Shown in pieces: positions 1,619 through 55,158 of a stretch of DNA of 64,000 nt. Location: assembly GCA_007376385.1 (NCBI GenBank), contig VMGC01000001.1, forward strand, positions 320,001 through 384,000, given 5' to 3'. Both the position numbers and the translations under genes were made by a program. Position 1 is the first letter of the stretch, and each line of letters opens with the position of its first letter. The stretch is from Parcubacteria group bacterium Gr01-1014_8. Lineage in GTDB: Bacteria; Patescibacteriota; Minisyncoccia; Phycocordibacterales; UBA2100. The notes beneath the pieces are model-generated. The model was not told where the DNA came from. It saw nothing but the letters and a program-made list of their open reading frames with translations, and made no database searches.

Positions 1619-1627
1619 CGTGCTACG

Positions 1628-4053: not shown

Positions 4054-4096
4054 ACCGCAATCGTAGCATAGCCGCTAAGGGTGCTAGCATGGGGCA

Positions 4097-5465: not shown

Positions 5466-5466
5466 C

Positions 5467-7320: not shown

Positions 7321-7401
7321 CCAAGCGGTGTAGAGGGGAAGTACTGAGCGCAGCAGCGTGAATGTGAGGTCAGTAGGCCGAATGTGAGGTAGAATGCCGC
7401 C

Positions 7402-8663: not shown

Positions 8664-8667
8664 GCAT

Positions 8668-32500: not shown

Positions 32501-32753
32501 GGCATTCGACGGCCGCGTGTTCTACGAAGAAGATATCGTCGAGAACTCTCTGACAATATACGCCGACAAGTCCGGCTTTGTTTCTGCGCGGCTCATCGCG
32601 GACAGATTCGACGCAGAAACGTGGCCGAACATTCGTCCTGACCAGGACGGAAATACCGAAGGCACGCACAATATAACTTCGAAATTGCCGGGAGGGGTGC
32701 TCCGAGCGGCAGCTACAGCAACCGAAGCCGTCTCATCGTGGTTCAATGAATAA
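20598..32753 (+). CDS. Giant (4051 aa) repetitive Gly/Thr/Ser/Ala/Asn-rich surface fibre protein. N-terminal cytoplasmic HTH_17-like motif and one TM helix (N-in), then about 3880 aa of extracellular beta-rich repeats
   Basis: Single uninterrupted 12,156-nt ORF. N-terminus YISAQEAATSLGFSRDYIARLARIGKVKGRQIGKNWYV. TM helix LTALITAFVLTFGAYAFV at about aa 163-182. GNVGIGTTSP-x-x-KL recurs more than 10 times. The module DVAAMTENYGDLL-WNG--W-DLATSSLGI-ISDT-GTLA--RGGTG occurs 4 times. NTA-G--AL / NTTG beta-roll-like repeats. Two segments have near-identical DNA (about 27340 and about 30604; NTSPSYKLDVAGFINTDQFSGYKQ). Confidence 0.8.
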   Translation: MSDEIFFDGVRYISAQEAATSLGFSRDYIARLARIGKVKGRQIGKNWYVEFRSVQTFVLEQEYLQGKRRKELAEKRVFEYRKQVGSTDERSSDIVAPVIFADAVSVSAKQNKRHAAIKAMLARAMSRRADLKVLAHANRVHTPSFFSVTPAVEFLHKLTALITAFVLTFGAYAFVNADYAHFALDSIRSASRSVVAVPKLVWGGDAARWGSDTGAQLAAVALQTAQSANQAESSITSFMSSAARNFNLHVNDLLYGVIYPNIPGMGSFAFSSARGRVDIQIVPYRSDAPAARSAPAPLIRTAVSAPTTVINQPIVERIRETKSVVTLGGISEELLASKLLELDTKLSSRMLSLTSSNATSITQVYNTVGQMGRIEHLDDLDLTNPTITRGTLTNVRISSLSAPLTISDGGTGTSSAPTYGKVLLGNSSGAYDLVATSSLGVGGTPGGSSTQVQFNDSGAFGADSTFTFNSTSNLLSFSSASSSLQSIFDRLYVGGTATTTIFGSATSTFGAGIETTALNVTSNSASSTFANGISLSAGCFRDASGACLQSATFAYLFPSDATTTKLTFSGGLISLASTTIGNGTQAGGLTISGGATTTGNLLVQGNATTTNLAVSGTASSSALVASNSFTFSNITGFLKATAGVVATAAINLASDITGILPAGNGGTGWGNIAANTIVLGNGTGAIATTSAGTNGQMLALVSGVPTWTATTTFSAPLVFFAGNVSIAASNGSTDGYLTSADWTLFNNKVSSSSLSTFTAAFKDWNITTNTFGQSSLAPTTTQNIAVTGVGTSTFAGGLEAWRQIGAPYFNATSSSATSTFAGGLNVLAINQTGSATSTFANGLQLSNGCIRLPSGSCLASVANSSIDDLSDVTITAAAYGDLLMHNGTAWVDTATSSLGIFISDTVGTLAVGRGGTGLSSTPTYGQLLVGNASSGYTLSATSTLGIALSDTIGTLAATRGGTGLSSITNNQLLLGGAGNTVTQIATSSLNLLTTDIIEGSRLFYTDNRVDTYIHGSTTIPKTYTANTFTGANTFNSTFTLGTLNGPLHANAGVVGATTSVLAIYGGTGQTSYSTGDILYASGAAALSKLGIGGAGEVLKISGGVPTWGTDLTSGGGADGTWSTTTSQVSGTLINYPNNASDIVAIGSTATTSAEYWFDPNTTIAYLSGKVGISTTSPYSKLTLWGSASLFEAVNTSSTTIFSIGQSGATTTNLGISGIASSLLKTTSTGGVVAAIPDTDYLNTASSIELLGDVAAMTENYGDLLYWNGSAWADLATSSLGIAISDTTGTLAVARGGTGQTTFSSSQLLYGNGTNALSSVATSSLSAGTGVTFSGTAGSLVGGTALTINTPWTISGNNIYNNNIANAAIGTSTPYATTTIWGNTASKIFEVVANASSTVFSVAQSGATTTNLGITGVTNSLLKTTSTGGVVAAVAGTDYATLSQTFGKAWEIDGNGFTGFLAPTTTQKVWIGQASSTLLSVNGPAYFGSTATSSFSTAGVLTLATDLAVTEGGTGASTLTGLLQGNGTSAFTAITDSSTVGQILRVTGASTYAWGALNLADTDAITGTLPISNGGTNNTTYSTNALLYFDGTSITATSTRPLYVGAINATTTATSTFAGGISVLNFAQTGTATSTLANGLTLTGGCVMVNGNCISPVGNSSIEDLNDVAAMTENYGDLLGWNGSTWTDFATTSLFTGSNGQMLAYANGGWTGVATTTAGTGLTYTGSAFNVDLGTSISAAEIADGDHGDFTYTSGVAAIDANAVTLGTDTTGNYVATLADSGGGTLTISNSGSETAAVTASLNLGNANIWTGKQNFFGSASSTLFSANWLKVGQTASTTFDSAGNATIGGTLNVTGQTTLATSLTGLLKATAGVVSSATEGTDYLSNALRDWSVQGNGYLAPTTTRGIIVVASSTIGAGGQATGLTISGGATTTGNAYFAGNVGVGTAAPSQKLQVVNGAIDINTDDQFLYFGSGDAGIRESGANLKFETYTGAALTEKMRITGAGNVGIGTTTPATLLSIAGTSGLFASTTATSTFQGGGINLLTAAGNTGCFAVNGTCLSNTASGIVGSGTTGQFPYYAANGTTLTATSTLFVSTASNVGIGATSPAAKLDVEGSGAVLTDIMVGNSQANANFGISAAGVPHLWTNNASWPLVLGVGGAEKMRVHTDGNVGIGAGATGPGALLTVDSGAASLTDILVGNSQANANFGISAAGVAHLWSNNSSWPLAFGIGAAENMRIHTNGNVGLGNTSPSYKLDVAGFINTDQFSGYKQNGTTILYSSSTLATMFGGYQAGNGQVQSGTGLYNTAFGYQALLSATSSSRSTAVGFSALASQANANGNDARNTAVGSQALGGTTYGYYNTAVGSDALAANTTGYFNSAFGQGALTGNTTGRDNIAIGYNSVSQSTAALENIGIGNSSLSGASLTGADNIAIGRQAGSAMSSGSYNILIGQYLYNSGTVFTGSNNIIIGRDIGSTASPLVSTTTSNALNIGNLIFATSLGTADTLSTGNVGIGTAAPNYQLSNNSASNNLDSGSTGLSTASSFNWANNGSGYGAGLYNASANSDANGLLVKIRGTASTNKILSLDTGTTQAGAGTNVLTVLGSGNVGIGTTSPRSALYFQANSSDPSLTSWTGIGTMRASTGVELAMGADDTTPFGAWLQTKDSTNGGTSYPLLLNPLGGNVGIGTTTPQTALHVNGILAATPSYGFYWYNGATFKGALKHNSSNDNLEIYTASDGSTPRLTVQSSSGNVGIGTTSPVSILAVAGANPVLTLNQTSSGNVSGLKITNGVNTLGTFTVAIDTGEVRIGGTSSGGYYDTFYADGSERMRITAAGNVGIGTTTPQWLLNPTSASASQLALSAGAGIAQWTFRNAGGNLYLSTTTVAGTATTSISALEIAGGGLGTTTVRGLNISAGATSTSNVGFSLTSGCFATPAGCISGVGDSSIEALNDVAAMTKNFGDLLYWNGTTWTDLATSSLAVNFSDLIGSATDAQVTNALTISGGVISGTNTVSGTWNTTNTLTIGNGGDRIDVNSSGWDVTDSVISGATYQGNTIGTTYGGTNATGFSSHALLAFNGTSIVATSTIGFQSFNATSTTATSTIAGGLAVETSGLVYDYSTNRVGIGTASPSNKLHIASSANDSTLFIQQTSGTQRADIRIDNDGGYMLIGRENSAGGSLAVGSTGYFGVMNVNNAYGLQFGTNNTVRATIDSSGNVGIGTTSPATSLSVSGSGYLTGALGVGAVATGFTNLLVNDNSNTAHNNDEGIVVKNTNTGSSAGASINLRNDGTYHGFMQMNSGANTSLAGANSFNIGAEHNINFGFITNDALQMTLNTTGLGIGNTSPSYKLDVAGFINTDQFSGYKQAGNTILYASSTNATVFGGQGAGSAMQTSGTGAYNTAFGYGALTTATSSSRSTAIGFNALANQANSNGNDARNTAVGSDSLAATTYGYYNVGVGASALTANTTGAFNVALGVGALQTATSTNNVTAIGYNALGAMICCGPAGTTPANVVVGHQVARQATTAYGITGIGYGALDSLTTGHDIVALGSQAGHMVTTGTNSIFLGDLSGFKDSAGANTAITGDNNIIIGNNQLMIPNAAGSNQLNIGNLIFGTSLSTGATVSTGNVGIGTTSPRSILHAVAGASGVLPNAGTTFTMESNTANYLSMLTASNAANGILFGTPTSAIDAGILYNSNGSARDLQFRTGVNNTRMTIDSTGNVGIGTTTPFRKLSITDAVSTAQQAIAYDSTRWTDLLTDSVGDLTINPQGDDVFLNADNLWVCTGGSCPSGTPAGTGNLIVETKLGVASSTPFATLGVKGSAASTAYTFMTTNSSDSPTFNIQDNGNVGIGTTTPTKQFSISSLLYVGAGGATGMGTATSTFQGDIKIIGKLDVGTIDPVYTIDGTKYATYGHSTVGIKEEVTAKLAVNEYDEARDLYRTTIRFDELEKGSDLWLFYEITRFGLEWEHLVVNLTPAFDGRVFYEEDIVENSLTIYADKSGFVSARLIADRFDAETWPNIRPDQDGNTEGTHNITSKLPGGVLRAAATATEAVSSWFNE

Positions 32754-40127: not shown

Positions 40128-41636
40128 TCATCGGACTTCCAACAACCATGACAGTGCGTTATTCGCGTACGCGTCGCATGCGTCTAGCTCTTCGAATCCA
40201 AGAGCCTTGCAAATGACGTCGTTCTTGAAGCCCGCAAATTCACGCCAGTGTGTCGCACGCATAAAAAGAGCTCCTAGAAGGCAATTTTGTTGGTCGTTCG
40301 ATCCTGGGCCCATCTGACATTTTTCTACTACTTCTGAGTCAGTGAGATTCAGCCATGGGAGAGCGGTGTTGAATCCGATGCCAGTGAAGCACTTATCCCT
40401 GAATCGTGATGGGGCGCGGAGGCATCCCTTGATCGACTCTTCGCTGAAATAACCAGGGCTCCAAACGGTGGATTGATTCAAGTAACAGATCTCAAGCATT
40501 GGATCGTCTCCAGCAAGTTCGAGGGCATCGCACGGAAAATCAGGCCGTGTTTTATCGAGCCATGTTGTCGTATGTCCGCGTACGCCGAATCCAAGGGTGA
40601 CGAATACATTTTCCATGAATGCGCCGTGATAGCACATCTTTTTCCCACGTTCGTACGTGACAAGATCGCGGCACTTTTGCAGCGACAAGGGAAGGTCATA
40701 ATTGTGATACACCATGAGCCCATGGCCGATGACGTGCTCGCAGAAGATGCCTCGCAGCGAGTCAGCATTCTCTTTTAAACACCCCGCCGCATACTTTTTT
40801 ACGGTCTCATCGTCTCCGACATTTCCAAGTGATGATTCGATGACACCGTGGTAAAAACCGAATTGGCATCTTGTGTCTATCATCTGTTCATCGAGTATTG
40901 AGAGGCCGTTCAGCGCGTATGCGATACGGCCTAAAAAGTGTGCCTCCGAATGACACTCTCCCACCGCTACCTGCGAACCTGGATTATCCGGACGCTGTGA
41001 AGGATCCATCGAATCCTTGACCAGTTCATCGAGCATTTTTTCGTATCCGAACACGCGCATCCAATATTCGAGTTCAGCGTCAGTCCTGCTCACCTCTATC
41101 ATATTCAATTTTTCCAACACCGATACTCCAGATCTCGGAAAAAATCTGAAATAGAAATGCATCAGCGACGCATGAAATTTTCGAGCAGGAGATAGCGCCC
41201 CATAACGAGGCAGCTCGGATGGATCTCCGCTCCCCGAATCCTTGACTAGTACCGTACCTGAACGTTCCGGGTCCATGTGGTCATGAAAATTCCACGTTCC
41301 TGCTTGTTTGAATTTAAAGCGGAATGATGCGTCTTGCAGCAGTTCGTGGCAAGAATCGAATCCTTTATACGCGTCAGTGCCGCACTCACGGATATCCGAC
41401 CCGGGATATTGTGTATGCGTGGGATGTACGTCAGATGCAATCCAATGAGGTTCGGTGTCTTCATTCACGAAAAGGACGCTTTCTCCTTGGACTATCTCAA
41501 CCTGCGACGGTTCAAAACCGCTCGCCGTCATGCGAATCGTAGTGTATGTAGTTTCTGCCGAGAGTGTCTGCGGCAGTGCGCAAAGAATTGATAGCAGGAC
41601 GAGAGATGCGTTGGAAGCTGCTGTTTTTTTTGTCAT
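40128..41636 (-). CDS. Exported Cys/His-rich family member P4 with N-terminal His-rich cupredoxin-like domain
   Basis: Signal peptide. N-terminal domain TIRMTASGFEPSQVEIVQGESVLFVNED...WNFHDHMDPERSGTVLV, then the family motifs ECHSEAHFLG, RCQFGFYHGV, FCEHVIGHGL and MCYHGAFMEN. Confidence 0.65.
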   Translation of the reverse strand: MTKKTAASNASLVLLSILCALPQTLSAETTYTTIRMTASGFEPSQVEIVQGESVLFVNEDTEPHWIASDVHPTHTQYPGSDIRECGTDAYKGFDSCHELLQDASFRFKFKQAGTWNFHDHMDPERSGTVLVKDSGSGDPSELPRYGALSPARKFHASLMHFYFRFFPRSGVSVLEKLNMIEVSRTDAELEYWMRVFGYEKMLDELVKDSMDPSQRPDNPGSQVAVGECHSEAHFLGRIAYALNGLSILDEQMIDTRCQFGFYHGVIESSLGNVGDDETVKKYAAGCLKENADSLRGIFCEHVIGHGLMVYHNYDLPLSLQKCRDLVTYERGKKMCYHGAFMENVFVTLGFGVRGHTTTWLDKTRPDFPCDALELAGDDPMLEICYLNQSTVWSPGYFSEESIKGCLRAPSRFRDKCFTGIGFNTALPWLNLTDSEVVEKCQMGPGSNDQQNCLLGALFMRATHWREFAGFKNDVICKALGFEELDACDAYANNALSWLLEVR

Positions 41637-41664
41637 CGAACCCTAGTATAGCGGAAGAAGTTTT

Positions 41665-43245
41665 TCAGGCTACTTCGCGTTTTCTGATGATGAGGAACAC
41701 GATCGAGAGGATGGGAAGTATGAGCACATATTCTCCTAGAAGTGAGTACAGGGTTTTCGTGTCTTTGAGCGGCACTGATGCTGCGAGTATAGAAGGAGCT
41801 GAGTCAGAGCGCATCTCCACTTTTCCGCGGTTTGTGACGATGGAAGATGCCAGCCCGTTTCCTGCGATAGCTATGTAGCGATCATTTTCGACCGCACGTA
41901 CCTTTCCTAGGGAAAGTACGAGGTTGTCTACCAGATGCGATCCATGGAACCACGCCTGTCCGGCTGGATTTACGAATACCCGTGCTCCGCCCTGGGCAAG
42001 TTTCTGGTACAGATTTGGCGAGAGAATATCCGAACAGAAAAGCGCTCCGACTTCTGTTCCGTTGATATGTGCAGGGAACAGTTTTGTTCCTGAAGCAACG
42101 GAACGTTCCCTCATTGTGCTCTGCTCTGCATCAGACACACCAATAAGGCGGAGCAGCATGGCAAAGAGCCAGGGCGTATATTCTCCCTGTGGCACCAAGA
42201 ATATCTTCCGGTATGTTTCAGGCATCAAGGTGCCGTTTTCGTACATACGCATCTGGACGTATCTTTCAGAACCCGTTCTCACCGGACCTGAGTCAATGAA
42301 TGTAACGGCGTGATCGGGAAAAACTAACTTCGCGAATTCAGTCGGGTCTTCGTTACTATGAACGAAAAAATCTGTCGCTTCCGGAAAGACAATGATATCC
42401 GGCGGCTCATTTTCTTTTGCCCATATTCGTATGTATTCTGCGACTTCGCGTGCATGTTTTCGCTTGACCTCTAACGAATACAGCGAGGTGACAGGCATGC
42501 TTGTTGAAACGAGTGCGACACGCACCGATCCAGATTCATTTTGAAAAGTCCAACTCGGAAGAGAATAGGCTCTATCAAGAGCCGCAAGAGTCAACGCTCC
42601 GGAGAGGATAAGTGCGAACACGAGCCCTCGTTTTCTCGCGTTTTCATACTGAAAAATTACGTGATACAGAGAAAAGCCGAGAAAGACCGCAAGAAAGGTC
42701 AGTATGTATATGCCGCCAATGGAAGCGGATCGAAGAAAAGGAGAAAAATTAGTAAGAGAATATCCGAGCATCGTAGGTGAGAAGTGCGGGCCGGAAAATG
42801 AAAGGTCGCGTGCTGTGAGTATGGCAAATCCCCACATTTGCGCGTATTGCAATACTGTCCAAAGAGAAGCGGCAAGCAGTGCGGCATAGAAACCTGAGCG
42901 CTTGGATCGGACAAAGCCAGCCGCAAAGAGTGAGAAAAAGACGGCGAGGACGAGAGTGACCATGAGCCATGAGAACCCTACGAATATGATCCCTTTCCAC
43001 GGAGGAGAACCAGTCCAGTCGAGTGGCAACACGTCCCAGAACCATGCTATGGCAGTACCGCTGTAGGCAAAGCCAAAGAGAAGTCCAAGTATTGACGCAT
43101 CTCGGTATTGTTTCTCTTGCAGGCGGTGCAATACGTGAGCGAAGGGAATGAGTCCGAATACGGATACCAGCCATATGGACGGGAACAGTATTCCCGATGC
43201 AGCGATAACGCCTGAGAATATTGCAAGCAAACCAAAGACTACCAT
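41665..43245 (-). CDS. lnt: Apolipoprotein N-acyltransferase
   Basis: About 7 N-terminal TM helices, a C-terminal CN-hydrolase domain with FPEA (Glu), Lys, and GALFCSDI (catalytic Cys), then a terminal TM helix; 526 aa. Confidence 0.7.
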   Translation of the reverse strand: MVVFGLLAIFSGVIAASGILFPSIWLVSVFGLIPFAHVLHRLQEKQYRDASILGLLFGFAYSGTAIAWFWDVLPLDWTGSPPWKGIIFVGFSWLMVTLVLAVFFSLFAAGFVRSKRSGFYAALLAASLWTVLQYAQMWGFAILTARDLSFSGPHFSPTMLGYSLTNFSPFLRSASIGGIYILTFLAVFLGFSLYHVIFQYENARKRGLVFALILSGALTLAALDRAYSLPSWTFQNESGSVRVALVSTSMPVTSLYSLEVKRKHAREVAEYIRIWAKENEPPDIIVFPEATDFFVHSNEDPTEFAKLVFPDHAVTFIDSGPVRTGSERYVQMRMYENGTLMPETYRKIFLVPQGEYTPWLFAMLLRLIGVSDAEQSTMRERSVASGTKLFPAHINGTEVGALFCSDILSPNLYQKLAQGGARVFVNPAGQAWFHGSHLVDNLVLSLGKVRAVENDRYIAIAGNGLASSIVTNRGKVEMRSDSAPSILAASVPLKDTKTLYSLLGEYVLILPILSIVFLIIRKREVA

Positions 43246-44114
43246 CGTAAAGATCCGCGATAATCAGCGAGTCGGATGGAAAAGACGATATGCAGGATCG
43301 CCCAGATATAAAAGAAGAGCGGAGGGAATACATACGCGAGTACGATAGAACCCCACGCGGTATATGCAAATAGCGCATACAGAGCAAAAACAATGGCATG
43401 GATCGCAAGCATATCCTTCACATATGCACTTTGACGGTCAGGCTTGCTTCCGAATCGAAAATAAAAGTGCACGTACCAGCATACGTAATGCAGCAGAATG
43501 ACCGAGCCGGTGAGTTTTGTCGATGAAACTTGAATGTCAAAAAACCACAACGCAAATAGTCCTGCGGTGATAAGCAAAAGATACGCACTCAGTGCATCAG
43601 GACGGTATGTTCCGATCGCAATGCTCGCGACATAGGGAACTAGCAACACGATCGCGAGCATGACAAGAGACGAAGAGAATGTGGCTCCCAACATATATCT
43701 TGAGATAAGAGCTGTGAAAAGAAGCACTGGCGGCAACTGTTCAAGAGCGCGAGAGAGAGAACGTTCCTTCCCGAAGAGCGTCACTTCATCCTGAAAATGA
43801 TGTATGAAAAACACTACAGAAGCGACGAGAGCAAACCATGCTACTTGATCCGTTAGAATGGCAAGTGTGAACAGTGCAGTTGTAAGAGTAACGAATGCAG
43901 CGACCCACGTCATCGTCATCTTACCGGCTTTCCATTGGTAGTAGTATGCCCCGAGAAAATGACCTTGGCCGAAGATACTGAATGCGAGTCCGACCTGCAG
44001 GGGAGAAAGGTAGTAAACCGCAAGCGCGACAATGGCGAGGCCAAGCGATTTTTGTATGACCAATTCACGTGTCATAGTAGAAGTATGGTAGCACATACTG
44101 GCATATGAAATCAC
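43239..44114 (-). CDS. Polytopic membrane protein of unknown function (~8 TM)
   Basis: 291-aa hydrophobic ORF overlapping the lnt start by 7 nt. No motif recognised. Confidence 0.45.
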   Translation of the reverse strand: MISYASMCYHTSTMTRELVIQKSLGLAIVALAVYYLSPLQVGLAFSIFGQGHFLGAYYYQWKAGKMTMTWVAAFVTLTTALFTLAILTDQVAWFALVASVVFFIHHFQDEVTLFGKERSLSRALEQLPPVLLFTALISRYMLGATFSSSLVMLAIVLLVPYVASIAIGTYRPDALSAYLLLITAGLFALWFFDIQVSSTKLTGSVILLHYVCWYVHFYFRFGSKPDRQSAYVKDMLAIHAIVFALYALFAYTAWGSIVLAYVFPPLFFYIWAILHIVFSIRLADYRGSLRW

Positions 44115-45304
44115 ATCTTATTTTGATCGTGGGAGGCATAGGGCTATTTTTGCTTGGTATTTTTTTCATAGTCTCTATGCCAGTAGGTGCAATCGTCGTC
44201 GAAGACGTCGTTGAAGATCTAGGGGAATGTCTCCACGAGAATCAGGCAGAATTAGAGAGTTTTCCATGCGTGAGGGAGAAAATACAGTCGCTTCTTCTCG
44301 AATTGCCTGCGCATGAGATCATGCGTGCGGTTGAAGCGTCGTTTCCATATCAGTGTCATGCTGTTGGTCATATTCTCGGGCAAGAAACGTACAAGATGCT
44401 CGGCTCAGTGGAAAGCGCCTTCGGAGCATGCTCTCCTGCCTCGTGCGTTCACGCGTGCACACACGGAGTTGTCGGGGAAGTCTTTCTCTCTACACCCGGG
44501 ATAGGAGGATTGCCAGAAGAATGGAGGCATCCGAACATCGACTTGATACGCTCGGAAGGCTCTTTGCTTTGCAGGGATAGAACGACATGTCATGCGGTCG
44601 GTCATGTACTTTTTTTACTTTTTTTTGAGGACCTCTCAGGTGCGCTTTCTATGTGTGATGAAATCGCAGGAGATGAGGCATTTACATGTCACAGCGGCAT
44701 ATTTATGGAGAATGGTGGCGGGACATTTGCGCGCACGATCCCTGGCTTAGATGTTGAGCGGGAAGAGTATCGTGACCCCACTGATCTTCTTTCTCCCTGC
44801 AATACGGTCGCTGACCGCTACAAAAAGGCATGCTTTAGATTCTTGTATATAAATCAATATGACTATTTTAAGGATCACGGCATTACTGATCCGCATACGA
44901 TCTTCAACACGCAGACGGATGCCTGCGGTATTGTCACGGATCGTTTGCAGCGCAGAGCATGTTTCAGAAGCGTGGGCTGGTCTCTCCAGGGGATGCGCCG
45001 ACCGCTTCTTTCCGCGCACGTGCTCTGCAACTCGCTGACTGTCATAGAGGATCGCAGTGCATGTCTTTTTGGCGTGAGCGATTCATTCACGGATCAGGGT
45101 ATGAGCATCTCGGAAACCGGAGGGGCGTGCAGAGCAGTAAACAATGAGCAAGGCAAACGCGCATGTTATGGAGGAATTTTCATGGCACTTTCAGACAGAG
45201 AACCTGGTCTTCTCCCAAGCGTGTGCGATGGCGCTTCTGACAGCGCATGTCAAATGTCGTTGCAGGAATTTTTAGCGAATCCAGACAGTCGTGATTCTAT
45301 TTAG
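44105..45304 (+). CDS. Exported Cys/His-rich protein, family member P5
   Basis: TM anchor. Motifs YQCHAVGHILG, SCVHACTHGVVGE, TCHAVGHVLF and TCHSGIFMENGG. Confidence 0.6.
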   Translation: MKSHLILIVGGIGLFLLGIFFIVSMPVGAIVVEDVVEDLGECLHENQAELESFPCVREKIQSLLLELPAHEIMRAVEASFPYQCHAVGHILGQETYKMLGSVESAFGACSPASCVHACTHGVVGEVFLSTPGIGGLPEEWRHPNIDLIRSEGSLLCRDRTTCHAVGHVLFLLFFEDLSGALSMCDEIAGDEAFTCHSGIFMENGGGTFARTIPGLDVEREEYRDPTDLLSPCNTVADRYKKACFRFLYINQYDYFKDHGITDPHTIFNTQTDACGIVTDRLQRRACFRSVGWSLQGMRRPLLSAHVLCNSLTVIEDRSACLFGVSDSFTDQGMSISETGGACRAVNNEQGKRACYGGIFMALSDREPGLLPSVCDGASDSACQMSLQEFLANPDSRDSI

Positions 45305-45330
45305 ACACTATTTACTCAATTGTTGGCACA

Positions 45331-46446
45331 ATGAGTCACATGATACAGCGTCTCACAGTGGGTGTGCTCGTGGCTGTTCTATCAGCGTTAGGAAGTGTCT
45401 TCTGGTTTCTGTACAACGAACCCCCTCATCATTGTCTGAAAGAAGAAAACGTACGGTGGTGCTTCATACACGAGGCGCAAGCTATTGCCGCAATAGAGGG
45501 AGCACAGAAGGCATATTCATATGTGCACGATGTCATTAAAAAATATAGCGATTATAAGACCGAACACCTGGCACTTCATTATGTTGGTATGAAGGCATAT
45601 GACGAAGCGGGATCAGTAGACAAGGCTTTTACGCTCATCTATGGGGAAGATCAGATGGCTGATGATTCGATATATTACAGCGGTTTTCAACACGGGCTCT
45701 TCGAGCGATATTTTGAGGTGAATGGAGCACAGACACCGACTGTGCTCGGGAATGAGACGTGTCACACATATGCTTCATCGGAGTCCCTCGATGAGTTCAC
45801 CAGTACCCGCACGCGAGTGCTCGCAGCGGAATGCTATCACGCGATCGGTCACGCGATAATGTTCATATCTGACAATAATGTTGAGGCATCACTTTCGGCA
45901 TGTGACGCGTTCCCTCATCAATGGGAGCAACGGTGGTGTTACCATGGAGTGTTCATGGAGAATTATTATCTACACATTCCCGAATATCATCTCGGCGTCG
46001 CACGGCCGGATGCCGAAGGGCTTTCTGTAGTCGAGCTTTGCATGCGCGTTGGGGAAAAATATCGGGGAGAGTGCAGTTATTTCGTGGGCTGGGTGTATAT
46101 GCAAATGCATCCAAACGACTTTGCCGGAGCATTTTCCGAATGCGCGATGTTTCCGCAGAGTGATGCAAGGATATGTATCGCACGCGTGGGACGTTTTTTT
46201 GTAGCCGCATCGTCCGCAGGCGATCTCTCGGGCATGATCGCAACGTGTGAGAAGGCGCACCCATTCCTGCGTGAATGTTTGTACGGAACAGCCATCGGAT
46301 TGAACCAGGGAGTGGGTTTGTTTGAATATGTCAATAAAGGCAAAGGGCTATGTGATGTTCTTGAGGACGATATGCACGCGGATTGTGAAAACGCCCTGAC
46401 ACGGTCTCATGAAAGTCTTGCGCGGAAAGTAATAACCGAACTCTGA
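45331..46446 (+). CDS. Exported Cys/His-rich protein, family member P6
   Basis: TM anchor. Motifs ECYHAIGHAIMF and WCYHGVFMENYY. Confidence 0.6.
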   Translation: MSHMIQRLTVGVLVAVLSALGSVFWFLYNEPPHHCLKEENVRWCFIHEAQAIAAIEGAQKAYSYVHDVIKKYSDYKTEHLALHYVGMKAYDEAGSVDKAFTLIYGEDQMADDSIYYSGFQHGLFERYFEVNGAQTPTVLGNETCHTYASSESLDEFTSTRTRVLAAECYHAIGHAIMFISDNNVEASLSACDAFPHQWEQRWCYHGVFMENYYLHIPEYHLGVARPDAEGLSVVELCMRVGEKYRGECSYFVGWVYMQMHPNDFAGAFSECAMFPQSDARICIARVGRFFVAASSAGDLSGMIATCEKAHPFLRECLYGTAIGLNQGVGLFEYVNKGKGLCDVLEDDMHADCENALTRSHESLARKVITEL

Positions 46447-47571: not shown

Positions 47572-49182
47572 GTGCACAACATGCAACGCATCAGTGCTTT
47601 ATTGCTGGTACTTGTACTCGGCTCTTATGCAATGTATTACGCCATTCCGGAGGACGTATCCAACGTATCATGTGATAACTGCAATCTTGTGATCATCACG
47701 TTGGATAGCGTGAGGTTGGATCACATGGCTTTGTATGGTTATGAACGCTCGACAACCCCGAACATCGACAACTTCGGACAGGGCGCGTTGGTATTCACTA
47801 ATTATTTTTCGACGAGTTATTTGACGCCTGTTAGTGCATTTTCAATGCTCACTGGCAGATATCCTTTCAGCAATGGCGTCGTCAGTTTTTATTCATATTT
47901 GCGCGACGATGTTACTTCACTTGCGGAGACCCTACAGGCGGAGGGGTATCGTGCTGCGGCGTTCGGTTCTTCTCCAGAGTACGAACTCTTTCCTTCACTC
48001 AAAGAAAGCGGGATGCGAGGTTTCGATGTGTATAAAACTTTTACGTCTGATGATCCAGATATATTGCCCAGTCGTTCGCAGGTTCCAGTAGAGGAAGCAA
48101 TTGCCTGGGCCGAAGATTCTTCGCAGCCGTTTTTTTTATGGATGCCGATCGGCGCTGCGCACTGGCCATATGATCCATTTGAAGAACGAACTTTTACCGA
48201 TGCAGGTTACGACGGGTTTCTGCGGAATTTACCTTCCGGTTTTAAGACCTATAGTCAGATATATAAGGGGACATATTATCCGATACGTGAGGGGACAATG
48301 CCGAATGTCCGCCAGTCTCTGCATCTGCCGGAATATTCTTCCCGACATACCGAAGAGGTCGATCTGCTCCTTGAGTGGGGACCATCTGCAACTACCTCAT
48401 TGAATGCGGAGGACCTTGAATACGTTCGAGGTCGCTACGACGACGGACTGCTATTCATGGATCGCATCGTCGGCGACATAATTGCAACTCTCGAAGAAAA
48501 ACATTTGGATCGGGATACCATCATAATTATTGAATCGGTGCATGGTGAAGAATTGGGCGAGCGCGGTGTCATTGGGCACTATGATATTGATGAAGCAACG
48601 ATACGAAGTCCGTTGATGATCAAGGTGCCTGGAGCGCGTTCGCGCCGCATCGACGCTCTTATCTCTGGAGTCGACATCTATCCGACCGCGCTAAGTATGT
48701 TGGGAATCGATATGGCTATGCGCGATGGGATAGACTTTGTACCATTTCTTTCCGGAGTGACCTCAACAGAACCTCGGCAAGAAGTATTCCTTACGCGCAC
48801 GCCACTTTTCGAGACGCTCTATACGGTCGAAGGGGATAGCATGACATCTGCTCGTTACGAGCGATTGCGCTCTGAGGATGCGCGCATGCATTATCACGAT
48901 AGCGCGATCCGTACGAACGAATGGAAGCTCATTCATCGCACTAGCAGAGTGGCGTTGTCACGTTATTCATGGTGGCAGTATCTCACTGGGAATATTGAAA
49001 ATATCCCAGAATACGAGCTGTATTTTCTTCTTGACGATCCTCTTGAGACAACGAATCTGTATAACGAGCGTCCTGACATTGCGACGCCATTGCAGGAGCG
49101 CTTGAGCGCGTGGGAGAATACGCAGGCGAGTGATCGCAATCTATTAAAAATGCAAGATACGATACGGCAGGAATACTTTTAA
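47572..49182 (+). CDS. Sulfatase-family (alkaline-phosphatase superfamily) enzyme with Thr at nucleophile position; membrane-anchored
   Basis: N-terminal TM. LVIITLDSVRLDH (metal-binding Asp), SYLTPVSAFSMLTGRYP in place of C/S-x-P-x-R, FFLWMPIGAAHWPY and ESVHGEELGE. Confidence 0.65.
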   Translation: MHNMQRISALLLVLVLGSYAMYYAIPEDVSNVSCDNCNLVIITLDSVRLDHMALYGYERSTTPNIDNFGQGALVFTNYFSTSYLTPVSAFSMLTGRYPFSNGVVSFYSYLRDDVTSLAETLQAEGYRAAAFGSSPEYELFPSLKESGMRGFDVYKTFTSDDPDILPSRSQVPVEEAIAWAEDSSQPFFLWMPIGAAHWPYDPFEERTFTDAGYDGFLRNLPSGFKTYSQIYKGTYYPIREGTMPNVRQSLHLPEYSSRHTEEVDLLLEWGPSATTSLNAEDLEYVRGRYDDGLLFMDRIVGDIIATLEEKHLDRDTIIIIESVHGEELGERGVIGHYDIDEATIRSPLMIKVPGARSRRIDALISGVDIYPTALSMLGIDMAMRDGIDFVPFLSGVTSTEPRQEVFLTRTPLFETLYTVEGDSMTSARYERLRSEDARMHYHDSAIRTNEWKLIHRTSRVALSRYSWWQYLTGNIENIPEYELYFLLDDPLETTNLYNERPDIATPLQERLSAWENTQASDRNLLKMQDTIRQEYF

Positions 49183-49190
49183 ATGATCTT

Positions 49191-50612
49191 ATGATGTTGC
49201 TCTTTCCATCTAAAAAACATGCATTTGTTGTGGTGGGGTGTATCGTGATGCTCGCGGTCGCGACATTTTTCATACTTCGAGGAGGAGACGATCTCTCGTG
49301 CAGAGAGTGTAATGTAATTATCATTGGCGTCGACACACTCCGGGCGGACGCGTTGCATAGTCTTGGATATGAGCGTGAGACCACTCCGACCCTTGATGCG
49401 CTCGCCAATAAAGGTGTCATTTTCTCACAGGCAATCTCTGCATCGAGCTGGACGGTGCCATCATTCATGTCGATCTTTACGGGTATGTATCCCTCGGCGC
49501 ACAAGGTGACAAATAAATTCGTAAAATTTTCAAAAGACGCGAAGATACTCACAAATCTTAAAGATATTGATCCTGAGATCGAAACGTTCGCGATGATCAT
49601 GAAGAACGCAGGCTACGCAACCGGAGGCTTTACGGGGGATGCAGGAGTCTCAGCACAGTTCGGATACGGACAGGGGTATGATATATATACCGACGAAAAA
49701 ACCTTCGGCGGATTTGAGAATAGCGAGCAACATGCCTTGAAATGGCTGGATACTCTGGACTCCAAACAAAAGTTCTTTATGTTCTTCCATGGTTATGATC
49801 TGCATGGGCAACATGATCTAGATGACGATTCGTCCAGGGAATTTGTTCCTGAATATTCAGGGACGTACAAAGGCACGAAAGAAGAAGAGGCAATTATCCG
49901 TGAACAGCAACTGGAATGGGGAGGATTGTCACTCACGCCGGGGGACGTAGCATTCTGGCGGGGCATATATGACAGCAAGATCAAAGACGCAGATACGCGG
50001 CTTGCCAGTTTTATCGCGGAACTCGAAAAGAGGGGTCTTCTCAAAAATACGGTCATAGTTTTAGTGTCTGACCACGGAGAAGAGTTTTATGAACATAAAG
50101 GCATTGATCACGGACACTCTTTATATGATGAACAGGTTCATGTGCCTTTGATACTCATCGTTCCGGGTATGACCGGCGGAAGAAGGGTCGATGCGCAAGT
50201 AAGTACAATGGATATCGCTCCTTCAATTCTCGATATCCTCAACATCGCACCGAGCGCAGCTTTCGAAGAACAAACCGCTTTGAGACGCAGTCTTGTGCCG
50301 TATATTCTTGGATTGGAATTTCGCGGGTACGATATTTTTACCGAGACGGATTATCGCAACTCACGGCATCTTCGTTCAGTGCGTACCGCAGACGGGTGGA
50401 AGTACATACTCGATCTCGAAAGTAAACACGAAGAGCTTTATGACCTTCGCAATGATCCAGGTGAGTTAAAGGATTTAGCATCGAGCGAGGTAAAAAAGCG
50501 TGACGAGACTAGAAGAAGACTTCTCACTCACATGCGGGATGAACTTCATCAGACTTTGGATCAAGAAATACGCACTGATTGTCTCCCGGTATATGTTGGA
50601 GAGTGCGAGTAG
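49191..50612 (+). CDS. Sulfatase-family (alkaline-phosphatase superfamily) enzyme, second copy, Thr at nucleophile position
   Basis: N-terminal TM. IIIGVDTLRAD, SSWTVPSFMSIFTGMYP, VSDHGEEFYEHKGIDHGHSLYDEQVHVPLILIVPG. Confidence 0.65.
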   Translation: MMLLFPSKKHAFVVVGCIVMLAVATFFILRGGDDLSCRECNVIIIGVDTLRADALHSLGYERETTPTLDALANKGVIFSQAISASSWTVPSFMSIFTGMYPSAHKVTNKFVKFSKDAKILTNLKDIDPEIETFAMIMKNAGYATGGFTGDAGVSAQFGYGQGYDIYTDEKTFGGFENSEQHALKWLDTLDSKQKFFMFFHGYDLHGQHDLDDDSSREFVPEYSGTYKGTKEEEAIIREQQLEWGGLSLTPGDVAFWRGIYDSKIKDADTRLASFIAELEKRGLLKNTVIVLVSDHGEEFYEHKGIDHGHSLYDEQVHVPLILIVPGMTGGRRVDAQVSTMDIAPSILDILNIAPSAAFEEQTALRRSLVPYILGLEFRGYDIFTETDYRNSRHLRSVRTADGWKYILDLESKHEELYDLRNDPGELKDLASSEVKKRDETRRRLLTHMRDELHQTLDQEIRTDCLPVYVGECE

Positions 50613-50665: not shown

Positions 50666-51058
50666 ATGCGAGGGACGCAGGTTTTCGATAATATGTCGCT
50701 GACATATATTCTTGTTTCCGTACTCCTCTTTGTATTGGTAGTAACTTCTGTTCTGTATCTAAAGAAAGGGGATGTCCAGGATGTAAGGAAGCAAATTATT
50801 CTTGAGCAACAAGGATTTCAGCCGAGTGAGCTCACTGTCAAAAAAGGAAGCACGGTAACATTCACTACGACCGCCGCGCGACAGTTCTGGCCGGCTTCAA
50901 ATTTGCATCCAAGTCATGACATCTATCCTGATTTTGACGCGAAGCGGCCTCTTGAGAGCGATGAAGTATGGAGCTTCACTTTCAATACAGCAGGCGATTG
51001 GCCATTTCATGATCACATCCGATCATACTATGTTGGTGTCGTACACGTAATCGAGTAA
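50666..51058 (+). CDS. Membrane-anchored standalone cupredoxin-like His-rich domain protein
   Basis: TM anchor, then QGFQPSELTVKKGSTVTFTTT...WPASNLHPSHDIYPDFD...WSFTFNTAGDWPFHDHIRSYYVGVVHV. Same domain as the N-termini of P4 and P8. Confidence 0.55.
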   Translation: MRGTQVFDNMSLTYILVSVLLFVLVVTSVLYLKKGDVQDVRKQIILEQQGFQPSELTVKKGSTVTFTTTAARQFWPASNLHPSHDIYPDFDAKRPLESDEVWSFTFNTAGDWPFHDHIRSYYVGVVHVIE

Positions 51059-51072
51059 AGTGGAAGCTGTAT

Positions 51073-52272
51073 ATGCGTTTGTATATGAAGATAAGTGTCC
51101 TCTCAGCATTCTTGTTTGTGGGGCTCGCAGTGTTTTTCTTTATGCCGGGTACTCGGATGGCGCGCGCGGCAGAGGCCTGTTCCACCGGGCACGAAAAACA
51201 AGATGAGCAGATACAATGCTGGCTCGATATCATGCGTGCGGAAATGAGAGATGATGGAATAGGAGCCGCAATGAAGGTCTTTTCGTACGTATACAACACG
51301 TACCCCACATTCTCAGCTACAGGCTGTCATGTGCACGCGCATCGCGTGGGCGATATGGCGTATTATGAATTTTATCTTGCGAATCCTGATCTTGATGCTC
51401 TGGAATTTCCGCAAGAGACGGCAAGTTGCGGGTATGGCTTCTATCACGGCTTTTTCGAGCATCTTATTCAGGATAATCCCGATCCGTCATACATAACGTC
51501 CACATGCACATATTTTCATGAGCGGCTCGGGCACATGCTCGGCGACATGAGACAGATCTGCTATCACGGGAGCGGGCATGGACTTATGCTTGCGAGAACA
51601 GAAGAAGTAACGAACGATGATTGGGGGAATGCACAGGCGTTCGCAACAAAGCCGCTCGAACAGTGCGAGAAACTTTCTGAGGCGACAGTGCGTGAAAAAG
51701 AAGAATGTCGTGAGGGGATCTATAATGTGCTTGTTGATTGGATGGAGGGGAAAGAGTATGGATTTGTCTACAACGACATCCACCCGTTCGCAGTTTGCGA
51801 TGAGCTTCAAAATTACGATTGGAAAAAGGCATGTTACTACGAAATGTCCCAGAAATTGGACCGAGTATCGGCACGTGACCCTGTGCAGCTTGTCAAAATT
51901 ATTGCTCCGATACAGGACCCGAAATTACAACGCACCGCATTGTTGGTAGGTATCGCGGGAATGATGCAGTCAGTTGCAAACACCAATGCGTACGAATCCT
52001 TCATGCGTACGTGTGCGCAATTGGGCGAGAAGTCCAGGAACGACTGTGCCATCGGCGTCATTTCCGGGCTCTTCGAGCACGGGCTTCCTCAGGAAGAGTA
52101 TGTGAATGCCATACGCGCATGTCGTCTCGAGGAAATTGGATCATCCGGGATGGCTGCTTCGTGCTGGAAAGAGGTTTCGAATAAATTAATACGTTTTTAT
52201 ACCCCCCAGCGTGTGCAAGAGATCTGTCCAGAATTTCCAGAGGAATACCGATCTCTGTGCAGCAAGAAATGA
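51073..52272 (+). CDS. Exported Cys/His-rich protein, family member P7
   Basis: Motifs GCHVHAHRVG, SCGYGFYHGFFEH, ICYHGSGHGLML and ECREGIYNVL. Confidence 0.65.
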   Translation: MRLYMKISVLSAFLFVGLAVFFFMPGTRMARAAEACSTGHEKQDEQIQCWLDIMRAEMRDDGIGAAMKVFSYVYNTYPTFSATGCHVHAHRVGDMAYYEFYLANPDLDALEFPQETASCGYGFYHGFFEHLIQDNPDPSYITSTCTYFHERLGHMLGDMRQICYHGSGHGLMLARTEEVTNDDWGNAQAFATKPLEQCEKLSEATVREKEECREGIYNVLVDWMEGKEYGFVYNDIHPFAVCDELQNYDWKKACYYEMSQKLDRVSARDPVQLVKIIAPIQDPKLQRTALLVGIAGMMQSVANTNAYESFMRTCAQLGEKSRNDCAIGVISGLFEHGLPQEEYVNAIRACRLEEIGSSGMAASCWKEVSNKLIRFYTPQRVQEICPEFPEEYRSLCSKK

Positions 52273-52280
52273 AGAGCCTC

Positions 52281-52467
52281 TTTTATTTCCGAGCCGAGGA
52301 GCAAACACAGGTTCAATACCTCGGAGCTTGCTCCGAGGAACCTTTATCTGTCGAGGATAGCAAGCGAAATGCGAAAGTGCAGGTTTCGCATTTCCGAGCG
52401 ACACAGACAGCAAAGGTTCAAAGCCCCGCGGCTTGCCTGCCTGTGCGATGCACGCAGACAGGCCGCG
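52281..52467 (+). repeat. Intergenic repeat element, most complete copy B (L-part 52281-52334 + R 52335-52467)
   Basis: R is identical to 16111-16243 apart from 1 nt. The L-part matches the inverted copy at 47343-47450. R overlaps the last 41 codons of the minus-strand gene P8. Confidence 0.75.
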
Positions 52468-53894
52468 GAATTTGGGACGCATAACCCTTCAACAAGCTGC
52501 GGGTCGGATGCCTTTGCAAATACGAGCACGATCTTTTGGCACTGCAGAAGCTCTTGCTCTAACGTAAATTGGCCGCAAAATGCAATGGAGTGCCGTGCGC
52601 CCTTTTCAGGTGTCTCACGATGGAAGAAACCCGACACAACGCCGAGAATGCATGCTGCCCATTCTTCTTGATCCATGAGTTGACTGCACTCTTTTGCCAG
52701 ATGCGTGAATTCTGGCTCACCGACGCGGCGCCGTACCTCGTCATTTATAAGCGCTTGCATTGATTCGAGCCGTGCTGCCTTTACGGGTATCTGTCTTAGT
52801 AACGAGAAACCGTCTTCAAGTGAGTATTTGTTGTGGCGGATGTATCCGACACCGATCTCTATGGCGCATCCCGTCCAATATTCTGGCACTGCCCTGCAAA
52901 CACCGAGGGGATCGTCATGCCTGAACGAGATCCCGTATTCACCGGAACCAAGAGCTATTGAGAGCGAATTGAATACGCCGGAAGCACACCGTGTTCTTTC
53001 CCACTCTGGTTGAATTGCGCTCTCGCATGAGAGGAGTGCGCTTTTCGCCATTTTGTATTCGTCACCCCACTTGGTTGAATCAATAGAGTCGAACAGTGCA
53101 TGTCCGATGCCGTGATAACACGCGCCGACAGCATTGTGCCGTGATGTTGGCGTTCCTAGATGTGTGCTATCTCGCATCTTTTCGCAGTAGGCAACGGTTT
53201 GAGCGACTCCCTCATCTCCTGTGTCGCGAAGGGCTTGTTCCATGAATCCATGATAGAAACCGAAATTGCAATACGTGGTTTCTATCCTGTCAGCGACAGC
53301 GCCTCCGGCTTTGTATAGTTGATATGTCTGTATGCCGATATAGTGCGAAACGTCGTGACAATTTCTCTGAAATAACGGATCCTCAGCATTCCACTTTTCG
53401 AAAGCGTCGAACACTGCGTCGAGTCCTCCTTTCTTAAGAATACGGTCTATTTCACCGTCCCAGCAGTAGGCTTTTATTGTGTCGGTCGAGGAGTCGAGAC
53501 ATGCTTCGACACTTTCTCCTTCATATCCTAGGACGATAATTCTTCCCTGCACCATTGGGTGCATATGATCGTGGAATGGCCAGACCCCTGCACGCGAAAA
53601 AGTAAATTCCCATGGATCACCGGGCTGAATCGCGTGTGTTGGGTCGAAATCCGAATAGCGTCCATGGGACGGATGAGAATCCGACGCAGGCCACGAATCT
53701 GATATCGATGAATTAACGAAGATGACCGTGTCACCTTTGTTGATAGTAAGCCTCTCAGGCGAGAATCCGGTATTGGTTCTTGTGATGGTGTATGTCTGCG
53801 GAGAAAGATATGCGTATGCCATTCCTGCAAGAACCGCGACAGCAAGAAAAATAACTGCCAAAAGCTTAACAGAAAGAGAAAAATGCGCGCGCAT
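52344..53894 (-). CDS. Exported Cys/His-rich family member P8 with N-terminal cupredoxin-like domain; C-terminal 41 aa encoded by repeat element R
   Basis: N-terminal domain TYTITRTNTGFSPERLTINKGDTVIFVNSS...WPASDSHPSHGRYSDFD...VWPFHDHMHPMVQGRIIV. Family motifs NCHDVSHYIG, YCNFGFYHGF, ACYHGIGHAL and RCASGVFNS. The stop codon lies inside R copy B. Confidence 0.65.
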   Translation of the reverse strand: MRAHFSLSVKLLAVIFLAVAVLAGMAYAYLSPQTYTITRTNTGFSPERLTINKGDTVIFVNSSISDSWPASDSHPSHGRYSDFDPTHAIQPGDPWEFTFSRAGVWPFHDHMHPMVQGRIIVLGYEGESVEACLDSSTDTIKAYCWDGEIDRILKKGGLDAVFDAFEKWNAEDPLFQRNCHDVSHYIGIQTYQLYKAGGAVADRIETTYCNFGFYHGFMEQALRDTGDEGVAQTVAYCEKMRDSTHLGTPTSRHNAVGACYHGIGHALFDSIDSTKWGDEYKMAKSALLSCESAIQPEWERTRCASGVFNSLSIALGSGEYGISFRHDDPLGVCRAVPEYWTGCAIEIGVGYIRHNKYSLEDGFSLLRQIPVKAARLESMQALINDEVRRRVGEPEFTHLAKECSQLMDQEEWAACILGVVSGFFHRETPEKGARHSIAFCGQFTLEQELLQCQKIVLVFAKASDPQLVEGLCVPNSAACLRASHRQASRGALNLCCLCRSEMRNLHFRISLAILDR

Positions 53895-53982
53895 ATGCCC
53901 CTAGTATACGATGCCCGTTCAGGTTGTTTTTTAACGACTCTTGGGGCAGAATGGCATCCTCGTGGGGTAGCGCCCTTGCTTT

Positions 53983-55158
53983 ATGAAGTTCAGACTGAGT
54001 GTCTATATATGGCCTATTATCGCTGCGGCAGCGTTGCTCGGGGGCGCCTTTTTCTACGTTAATTTTTCCTCGCGTGCTGAAGCTGCAGCCATAGTCGAAA
54101 CATGTAAAAAGGAGCCAGACAACATGTTCTGTTACGAACGCGAAGTGCCGAAGCTGTATTCTTCTTACTCGATCCCGGAACTATTTGAATTCATCCGCGA
54201 GATCCGTCGTCTCGATCCGTCGTATCAGTTTTGCCATGTACTTGCGCATAAGCTCGGCGAAGAGGCCGTTGCAGAAGACCCGTCGCGCTGGCTGGATATG
54301 ATCCCTCTGAACCCGCGTGATGGAATGTGCAGCAACGGATTCATTCATGGCGTCATCGTAGGCAGGTTTCGCAATGACACGCTCGACAAGGAAACGCTCG
54401 AGAAAACGATACCTGATCTTGCGAGGGCGTGCGAACCGCGGGCGAACTGGTCTCCCAGTTCGTTGGACCAAGCGATTTGCTATCACGGCATGGGCCACCT
54501 TTTTATGTTCATAACGAACGCTGACATGCGGCTCTCGCTGGATACGTGCGCACGCATATCGCGAAGTGCAACTGGGGATTTTATGCGCGTCTGCCGAGAA
54601 GGCGTATTCATGCAAACATATCAGCCGCTTGAGCCGGACGATTTTGCTCTGCTAGAATTACTTCCTGAAAAACCGACGAAAGAAAATTACCGGCGCTTAT
54701 GCGCAGCGTACGCGAACGATCCAGAAGAAGGAGCGTGTCTTCGGGAAGCGTGGCCGTTCTTCCGCACCGACATTCTTAAAGGAACTGGTGCCATCAGTTT
54801 TTGCTCAGGACAACCAACCAAGGAGGAGGAAGAGATGTGCTACGAATCGGCTTCAACTATCATAGGAAGACAGCTTCTCGGGAACGATGAAAAAGCAAGT
54901 GCGGCGTGTGATGCTCTTCCTCAGAAATGGCAGAGCATATGCTACATTGCGGCTGCTCAAGCACTGCTGGAAGAAGATAGGGCGACGGGGAAGGCTGCAA
55001 TTTCTCTCTGCGAGAGAGGAAAGAATGGTGTTGCTGATACCTGCTTAAAGACACTTGCGATGCGAGCAAACTGGATATTTTCAAGCGGTGCAGCGGAAAA
55101 GGACGCATTTTGCGAGGCATTGCCGCGATTCAAGGAGGAGTGCGATCGGCGGCGCTAA
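53983..55158 (+). CDS. Exported Cys/His-rich protein, family member P9
   Basis: Motifs FCHVLAHKLG, MCSNGFIHGV, ICYHGMGHLF and VCREGVFMQT. Confidence 0.65.
   Translation: MKFRLSVYIWPIIAAAALLGGAFFYVNFSSRAEAAAIVETCKKEPDNMFCYEREVPKLYSSYSIPELFEFIREIRRLDPSYQFCHVLAHKLGEEAVAEDPSRWLDMIPLNPRDGMCSNGFIHGVIVGRFRNDTLDKETLEKTIPDLARACEPRANWSPSSLDQAICYHGMGHLFMFITNADMRLSLDTCARISRSATGDFMRVCREGVFMQTYQPLEPDDFALLELLPEKPTKENYRRLCAAYANDPEEGACLREAWPFFRTDILKGTGAISFCSGQPTKEEEEMCYESASTIIGRQLLGNDEKASAACDALPQKWQSICYIAAAQALLEEDRATGKAAISLCERGKNGVADTCLKTLAMRANWIFSSGAAEKDAFCEALPRFKEECDRRR

Follow-up and report, generated by a model that had tools for sequence, protein, structure and literature searches.

Two adjacent genes, here called A and B, lie in a stretch of 64,000 nucleotides from the Parcubacteria group bacterium Gr01-1014_8 (GenBank assembly GCA_007376385.1, contig VMGC01000001.1, positions 320,001 to 384,000 of the forward strand; the whole stretch is called the window). 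Database entries name their products sulfatases, yet both proteins have a threonine where sulfatases carry the residue that is converted to formylglycine (FGly). Judging by the sequence, FGly is impossible in either protein, the residue being threonine, and neither can be an FGly sulfatase. On balance, we think that B is an extracytoplasmic, metal-dependent phosphoesterase that acts through a phosphothreonine at Thr88, and that A, a paralogue whose metal site is compromised, works together with B, probably in physical contact with it.

Threonine in place of formylglycine

Gene A (47572-49182) encodes 536 amino acids from a GTG start; the NCBI gene model starts at an ATG at 47581 instead and gives 533 amino acids. 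Gene B (49191-50612) encodes 473 amino acids. Both genes are on the plus strand, as are all of their features described below, and only 8 nt (49183-49190) separate the stop of A from the start of B, so that the two are likely to form an operon. Their matches to Pfam PF00884 are far beyond chance (E = 3.5e-42 for A and 6.2e-46 for B, with the cut-off at 25 bits), and both also have weaker matches to SGSH_C and PF01663, with B exceeding the gathering threshold of the latter (65.5 bits). The database entries with 100% identity are 'MAG: Arylsulfatase A' for A (P0121) and 'MAG: sulfatase' for B, where MAG stands for metagenome-assembled genome. In NCBIfam we found only partial, sub-threshold matches and no equivalog; PehA, for example, reached 83 bits against a cut-off of 900.

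HMMER alignments to the solved FGly enzymes 4UPI and 4UPH place Thr85 of A and Thr88 of B in the FGly column, and place alanine (A) and phenylalanine (B) in the column of the motif arginine. This confirms the claim of an earlier, sequence-only reading of the window that a threonine without an accompanying arginine occupies the position of the FGly motif. The segment in A reads S-Y-L-T85-P-V-S-A (Thr85-Pro-Val-Ser-Ala89 at 47824-47838), Ala89 standing in place of the glutamate of the family and the arginine of sulfatases; the segment in B reads S-W-T88-V-P-S-F (Trp87-Thr88-Val-Pro-Ser-Phe92 at 49449-49466), with Phe92 in the arginine column. No C/S-x-P/A-x-R motif is present in the aligned active-site helix of either protein. 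Because this motif is absent and the threonine is constant or almost constant within the family, the two proteins are not FGly sulfatases, as the sequence-only reading had suspected. It had also seen no gene for a formylglycine-generating enzyme (FGE) or an anaerobic sulfatase-maturating enzyme (anSME) nearby, and our scan of window open reading frames (ORFs) of at least 150 amino acids likewise yielded no FGE (PF03781) or radical-SAM (PF04055) maturase.

The predicted metal ligands of B form a complete set. Asp48 (49332-49334, in G-V-D-T-L-R-A-D, and invariant in 120/120 family B proteins), Thr88, Asp294 and His295 are all invariant and correspond to the acidic/Thr/Asp/His pattern of Thr-type enzymes. 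The last two stand in the segment Asp294-His295-Gly-Glu297...His302...Asp306-His307 (50070-50111), which combines the metal ligands (S-D294-H295-G-E-E) with a histidine at or near the position of the sulfatase and phosphonate monoester hydrolase (PMH) lysine. A lysine after DHG is not conserved in family B, which has a histidine-rich segment there instead. Within His200-Gly-Tyr-Asp203-Leu-His205 (49788-49805), His200 and Asp203 are conserved in the Thr-type clade, and His205 aligns with a conserved active-site histidine of sulfatases.

The ligand set of A, in contrast, is partial. Asp45 at the first metal-ligand position (47704-47706, in T-L-D-S-V-R-L-D-H), Thr85 and His324 are kept, but the segment S-V-H-G-E-E (Val323-His324 at 48538-48543) has valine in place of the PF00884 metal-ligand aspartate. 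His336, twelve residues past His324 (48577-48579), is near-invariant. Of the PF00884 features that the sequence-only reading had ascribed to both proteins, the matches to the family stand for both and the SDHGE motif stands for B, but A reads S-V323-H-G-E-E and has lost the metal-binding aspartate.

Family A as a whole keeps Asp45, Thr85, His197, His324 and His336, has two insertions, and is without His200 and Asp203. At the second-ligand position, members of the Candidate Phyla Radiation (CPR)/Bacteriovorax type have glutamate (S-E-H-G-E) and those of the Geobacter type have isoleucine, valine or threonine, and the change co-varies with the residue four positions after the threonine (Glu versus Gln, Met or His). 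The A protein of the window is non-acidic at both sites (Val323 and Ala89); it shares the valine only with P0122, its closest homologue. Family A also drifts faster, with a divergence of 0.61 versus 0.49 for B.

The threonine itself is a family trait and no quirk of these two genes. It is found in 120/120 close homologues of B, in 39/40 homologues of A (the remaining one has serine), and in 78/78 more distant relatives, which have the motif T-L-P-S-H and are in many cases fused to tetratricopeptide repeats (TPR). When 1.84 billion representative proteins were searched exhaustively with phmmer, 16,308 of them matched at E <= 1e-30; in the top 150, 146 of the 156 aligned domains have threonine, the others having serine (4), cysteine (3), alanine (2) or isoleucine (1). 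The clade motifs are W-T-[VL]-P-S-[FH] for B and L-T-P-[IV]-S-E for A. B-type proteins conserve Asp48, His200, Asp203, His205, Asp294, His295, His302 and His307, and 61 columns of B are invariant across phyla.

Fold and membrane anchoring

AlphaFold2 models built from the family alignments are of high confidence (pLDDT 95.1 for B and 90.5 for A, pTM 0.92 for both) and show one N-terminal helix, a linker of about 8 residues and then the catalytic domain, with the PF00884 alpha/beta fold and the C-terminal subdomain of S1 sulfatases. Structure prediction had been proposed in the sequence-only reading as a way to locate the threonine; in both models it stands at the N-terminus of the helix that bears FGly in sulfatases (Thr88 opening helix 88-97 in B, Thr85 opening helix 85-94 in A). 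The best Foldseek matches of A in the Protein Data Bank (PDB) are S1 sulfatases, PMH and choline sulfatase, and the picture is the same for B. Behind the sulfatases and PMHs follow YejM/PbgA (33), LtaP (30.7), LtaS (28.4), EptC (28.0), EptA (25.8), MCR-1 (25.0) and NPP (24.7). A and B are evolutionarily sulfatase/PMH-like rather than LtaS/EptA-like, and all NCBIfam models for phosphoethanolamine transferases and LtaS remain far under their cut-offs. The N-terminal domain with multiple transmembrane helices is absent.

Each protein has a single hydrophobic segment, a signal anchor, as the sequence-only reading had described: residues 7-25 of A (47590-47646; found by hydropathy scan, with an AlphaFold2 helix at 2-24) and approximately residues 8-30 of B (49212-49280), followed in B by C37-x-x-C40. 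B also has a conserved C-terminal cysteine pair, Cys464-x-Pro-Val-Tyr-x-x-x-Cys472 (50580-50606), which is consistent with an extracytoplasmic disulfide. The further claim that a single anchor is an unusual architecture does not hold, since it is normal for the clade, which comprises thousands of relatives with a signal peptide (Sec), a lipobox or lipoprotein signal, or a single anchor. A scan for promoters and terminators around the pair gave matches at chance level only.

Two paralogue families that travel together

In GTDB species genomes, our scan detected genes for relatives of B at no fewer than 553 loci. They occur in CPR bacteria (Saccharibacteria, Nomura-, Adler-, Moran- and Shapirobacteria), in DPANN archaea (Woese- and Aenigmatarchaeota), and in Methanoperedens, Bacteriovoracaceae, Omnitrophota, Elusimicrobia, Geobacteraceae, Pirellulaceae and others. 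We tallied the partners of B at 53 non-redundant true-B loci. At 29 of these an A-type gene is adjacent, and at one the two are fused in the order B-A; ten loci have a different adjacent sulfatase-like gene, six have no partner despite room on the contig, and at seven B lies at a contig end. The adjacency of A and B spans CPR bacteria, DPANN archaea, Bacteriovoracaceae and Geobacteraceae. A precedes B in the relatives of the window, elsewhere the order is often B then A with a 4-bp overlap, and sometimes the genes are divergent. Six Geobacteraceae loci (L028, L034-L036, L041 and L046) have the arrangement B-A-A', in which both A-type copies read S-I-H-G-E; this arrangement adjoins a gene for a metallo-beta-lactamase-fold (MBL-fold; Lactamase_B_2) protein and a multihaem cytochrome gene.

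Fusions of B followed by A, 930-1000 amino acids long, are found in at least five diverged proteins (P0241, P0262, P0268, P0281 and P0283). P0241 (999 amino acids) is encoded at 6974-9976 of locus L025, from a Geobacteraceae MAG, and has lost the C-terminal cysteine pair of B; P0281 is encoded at 6001-8841 of L086. A frameshift artefact as the source of the L025 fusion was considered and rejected: the four other fusions are only 34-40% identical to P0241, one of them lying on a contig that also carries archaeal marker genes, the others on metagenome contigs. Two-domain representatives of about 900-1000 amino acids are also numerous in the library of 1.84 billion proteins. A candidate of another kind, P0337 (717 amino acids), joins an FGE-like PF03781 domain to a B-type domain with W-T-V-P-S-S and might have pointed to FGly maturation, but it has an internal lipobox-like signal before the B domain and is probably no true fusion but two neighbouring genes that were merged into one.

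A and B are old, distinct paralogues that form a unit and co-evolve. They share only 27% identity and belong to two ancient families that travel as a pair; they are not simple tandem duplicates.

A model for the A/B pair and its alternatives

Together, our data suggest a model in which A and B would be the two halves of a membrane-anchored extracytoplasmic module of the alkaline phosphatase superfamily, with the fold of S1 sulfatases and PMHs and with an invariant threonine in place of FGly. B is best described as a sulfatase scaffold with a predicted phosphoryl-transferase-like active site. In this active site, Asp48, Thr88, Asp294 and His295 would hold a divalent metal, and His205, His302 and His307, along with His200 and Asp203, would surround the metal centre. 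The metal-activated alkoxide of Thr88 would then attack a phosphate ester to form a phosphothreonine intermediate, which would be released to water. By analogy, the chemistry of B would be that of NPP, LtaS, EptA and MCR-1. The substrate would most likely be a phosphodiester and possibly a monoester. A would be auxiliary, either substrate-binding or weakly active, and physically partnered with B; an auxiliary role is more likely for A because it evolves faster and has lost both the aspartate of the second metal-ligand position and the glutamate four residues after the threonine. The frequent adjacency of A and B, their recurrent fusions and their correlated divergence speak for such a partnership. 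Fold, motifs, conservation, pairing, fusions and co-evolution are observations; we infer from them the nucleophile chemistry, hydrolysis in place of transfer, the association of A and B in a heteromer, and the class of substrate. A hydrolase is preferred over a transferase because a lipid-handling domain with multiple transmembrane helices is absent and because many relatives are only secreted or held by a lipid tether. The spread of the family over bacteria and archaea whose envelopes are unrelated would favour a universal substrate, for instance extracellular phosphodiesters, nucleotides or organophosphate.

Several points weigh against this model. The nearest solved proteins, by sequence as well as fold, are FGly sulfatases and PMHs and not Thr-type enzymes, and we found neither a characterized member of the clade nor activity data for any member in the literature. 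The lysine of sulfatases and PMHs aligns to His307 of B with 4UPH or to the variable His309 with 7STT, an ambiguity of about two residues. The pairwise distances of A and B are correlated (r = 0.905 over 30 pairs, a value reached in 0/2000 permutations), but co-transfer of adjacent genes is expected anyway, and the correlation is therefore no proof of physical contact. No third neighbour that would hint at a substrate is conserved across phyla among 54 loci; the search returned only antisense shadow ORFs and lineage-specific genes, such as the B12-radical-SAM and methyltransferase genes of Omnitrophota. Finally, nearly all A members retain the threonine, Asp45, His324 and His336, and A may still be an enzyme.

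One alternative is that A and B are independent enzymes that do not form a complex, but act on related substrates or in successive steps and are kept together as an operon only, for example as a phosphodiesterase followed by a phosphomonoesterase in the scavenging of extracellular organophosphate or nucleotides. The retention of the threonine, the first aspartate and the histidines in both proteins would be expected in this case, the variable gene order and the third, A-like copy in Geobacteraceae point the same way, and the wide, patchy spread over bacteria and archaea whose envelopes differ greatly agrees with a substrate that is universal in the environment. We nevertheless regard it as rather unlikely, as B-A fusions recur in diverged lineages and as the metal-ligand position of A varies between Glu, Ile, Val and Thr, with no fixed aspartate, in a protein that drifts faster. 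The opposite extreme, an obligate heteromeric ectoenzyme, is also no more than tentatively proposed, and we are doubtful of it in this full form. It would represent a large, so far unrecognized class of two-subunit (or fused two-domain) phosphodiesterases on the sulfatase fold, with a catalytic Thr-type B and a paralogous A whose metal site is degenerate. Gene transfer would have spread this class among the ultra-small symbionts of the CPR and DPANN groups, the predatory Bacteriovoracaceae, the Geobacteraceae and others, and it might serve to obtain phosphate, nucleotides or lipid head groups from the surroundings or from host cells.

A different chemistry is assumed if A and B are phosphotransferases like LtaS, EptA and OpgB, which would move a phospho-alcohol head group (glycerol-phosphate or phosphoethanolamine) from a membrane lipid to a surface polymer or lipid. 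The threonine nucleophile and the MCR-1-like D-H-G-E-x9-H motif speak for this idea, as does the short distance of about 8 residues between the anchor helix and the first strand, which would keep the domain at the membrane surface, and there are weak lipid-related neighbours (an Lnt-like gene in the window, a PEMT-like gene at a Woesearchaeota locus and the MBL-fold gene in Geobacteraceae). With the simply secreted relatives and the missing lipid-handling domain on the other side, we consider it improbable. That both proteins are pseudoenzymes, non-catalytic surface binding proteins that retain the sulfatase fold, is very improbable: the loss of a metal ligand in A would fit, and the Thr-type relative YejM/PbgA was for a long time considered non-enzymatic (PMC7576196), but B keeps all predicted ligands and 61 invariant columns across phyla, as is typical of an active enzyme. 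Genuine sulfatases, which would need another residue for FGly or a Thr-based mechanism, are suggested by the best PDB matches and by the database names 'sulfatase', 'Arylsulfatase A' and 'choline-sulfatase'. We find this scarcely credible, given the near-invariant threonine, the missing C/S-x-P/A-x-R motif, the lack of an FGE or anSME among the scanned window ORFs and the statement in SulfAtlas that threonine cannot give FGly (PMC5066984). Our preferred reading therefore remains a Thr-type phosphoesterase B with A as its partner.

Surroundings of the pair

At least six paralogous, N-terminally anchored, cysteine-rich proteins flank the pair, within 40128-46446 and 50666-55158. Their ORFs are at 44105-45304, 45331-46446, 51073-52272 and 53983-55158 on the plus strand, and at 40128-41636 and 52344-53894 on the minus strand. 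Each has 14-20 cysteines, with repeated C-x10-11-C pairs about 35 amino acids apart and C-[YH]-H-[AG]-x-G-H motifs, and none has a sequence match in Pfam, NCBIfam or the PDB. Such proteins also flank the A/B pair in four related loci (L001, L002, L005 and L017). Membership in the A/B module was considered for them and rejected, since they flank the pair solely in close Parcubacteria relatives. Three cupredoxin-like domains (PF13473, with weak amicyanin and plastocyanin matches) are found in the same region, one at 50666-51058 on the plus strand and two at the N-termini of the minus-strand ORFs 52344-53894 and 40128-41636, where they are fused to the cysteine-rich repeat domain; they have the motif H-P-S-H-D ... 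W-P-F-H-D-H. They may represent a surface module with a role related to copper or redox.

An apolipoprotein N-acyltransferase-like gene (LNT_N and CN_hydrolase, 41665-43245) lies on the minus strand, some 4 kb upstream of A and B. Further away, an ORF of 4051 amino acids (20598-32753, plus strand) resembles the giant surface proteins that are common in CPR genomes; its GC content is 0.54-0.56 versus about 0.48-0.50 around it, and its GC skew is reversed. An envelope glycosylation cluster at 797-12614 contains genes for a cytidylyltransferase/mannose-6-P isomerase, two family 2 glycosyltransferases (GT2), PMT_2, an asparagine synthase, methyltransferases and a Wzy_C/O-antigen-ligase-like protein fused to TPR.

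Novelty and implications

Threonine in place of Cys/Ser in PF00884 is already known. In the literature that we searched, we found no description of the W-T-x-P-S clade with the two-subdomain fold of S1 sulfatases, of its size, of the hetero-pairing of A and B, of their fusions or of their co-evolution. The main result is that an annotation is corrected on good grounds; the conserved enzyme pair adds a modest degree of novelty. In genomes of CPR, DPANN and many other organisms, thousands of proteins that carry the names 'sulfatase', 'arylsulfatase A' or 'choline-sulfatase' are almost certainly not hydrolases of sulfate esters, and inferences on sulfur cycling from such annotations are unsafe. 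With its S1-sulfatase scaffold and Thr-type active site, the clade lends itself, as a natural intermediate, to studies of the switch in nucleophile and specificity within the alkaline phosphatase superfamily. The pairing of a complete with a degenerate paralogue, sometimes in one polypeptide, suggests that an enzyme and a pseudoenzyme act as partners at the cell surface in organisms that rely on scavenging.

Comparison with known systems

The best matches in sequence and fold are the enzymes of the arylsulfatase (AS)/PMH group (SpAS1 4UPI, A. radiobacter PMH 4UPH, SpPMH 4UPK, RlPMH 2VQR and EfAS 9KOQ) and the S1 carbohydrate sulfatases (7EBP, 7STT and others). A and B share with them the two-subdomain architecture, including a SGSH_C-type C-terminal part, and the first motif D-x-x-R-x-D; like PMHs and EfAS, they have histidine as the fourth metal ligand (D-H; D294-H295 in B). 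They differ from this group in having threonine and no FGly derived from Cys or Ser, in the replacement of the motif arginine by Phe (B) or Ala (A), in the histidine-rich segment in place of the lysine after DHG, and in forming an A/B hetero-pair, whereas the solved enzymes are homo-oligomers. EfAS, a Mn-dependent arylsulfatase, was considered as a candidate for a characterized member of the clade and rejected because it uses Cys61/FGly.

In SulfAtlas, threonine stands for Cys/Ser in 30/59 seed sequences of PF00884, and the name sulfatase was judged wrong for such proteins (Barbeyron et al., 2016; PMC5066984). A and B are cases of the same mis-annotation, although the example named there has the motif T-x-N-x-E, which differs from the A and B clade motifs, and neither pairing nor fusions are described (PMC5066984). 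LtaS, EptA, MCR-1 and YejM carry threonine at the nucleophile position of PF00884 (PMC5216409, PMC7576196). A and B resemble LtaS/LtaP, EptA/EptC/MCR-1, OpgB and GacH in the threonine that opens the equivalent helix, in the acidic/Thr/Asp/His metal site and in their extracytoplasmic location. The spacing of D465/H466/E468/H478 in MCR-1, where H395 and H478 touch the phosphothreonine or a second zinc, is matched by D294-H295-G-E297-x9-H307 of B (PMC5216409), and V323-H324-G-E326...H336 of A has the same histidine twelve residues downstream. Unlike LtaS, EptA and MCR-1, A and B are without the N-terminal lipid-handling domain of five transmembrane helices.

A five-helix membrane domain is likewise present in YejM/PbgA/LapC (6VAT, 6XLP), a lipopolysaccharide regulator of Gram-negative bacteria that is not paired with a paralogue, and A and B differ from it in both respects. 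Among the Thr-type members of the superfamily, the ENPP ectoenzymes also have a single membrane pass. The closest analogy for the possible function of the pair is offered by NPP/ENPP, PafA and PhoK (PF01663), which share the threonine nucleophile and act as soluble or single-pass ectoenzymes.

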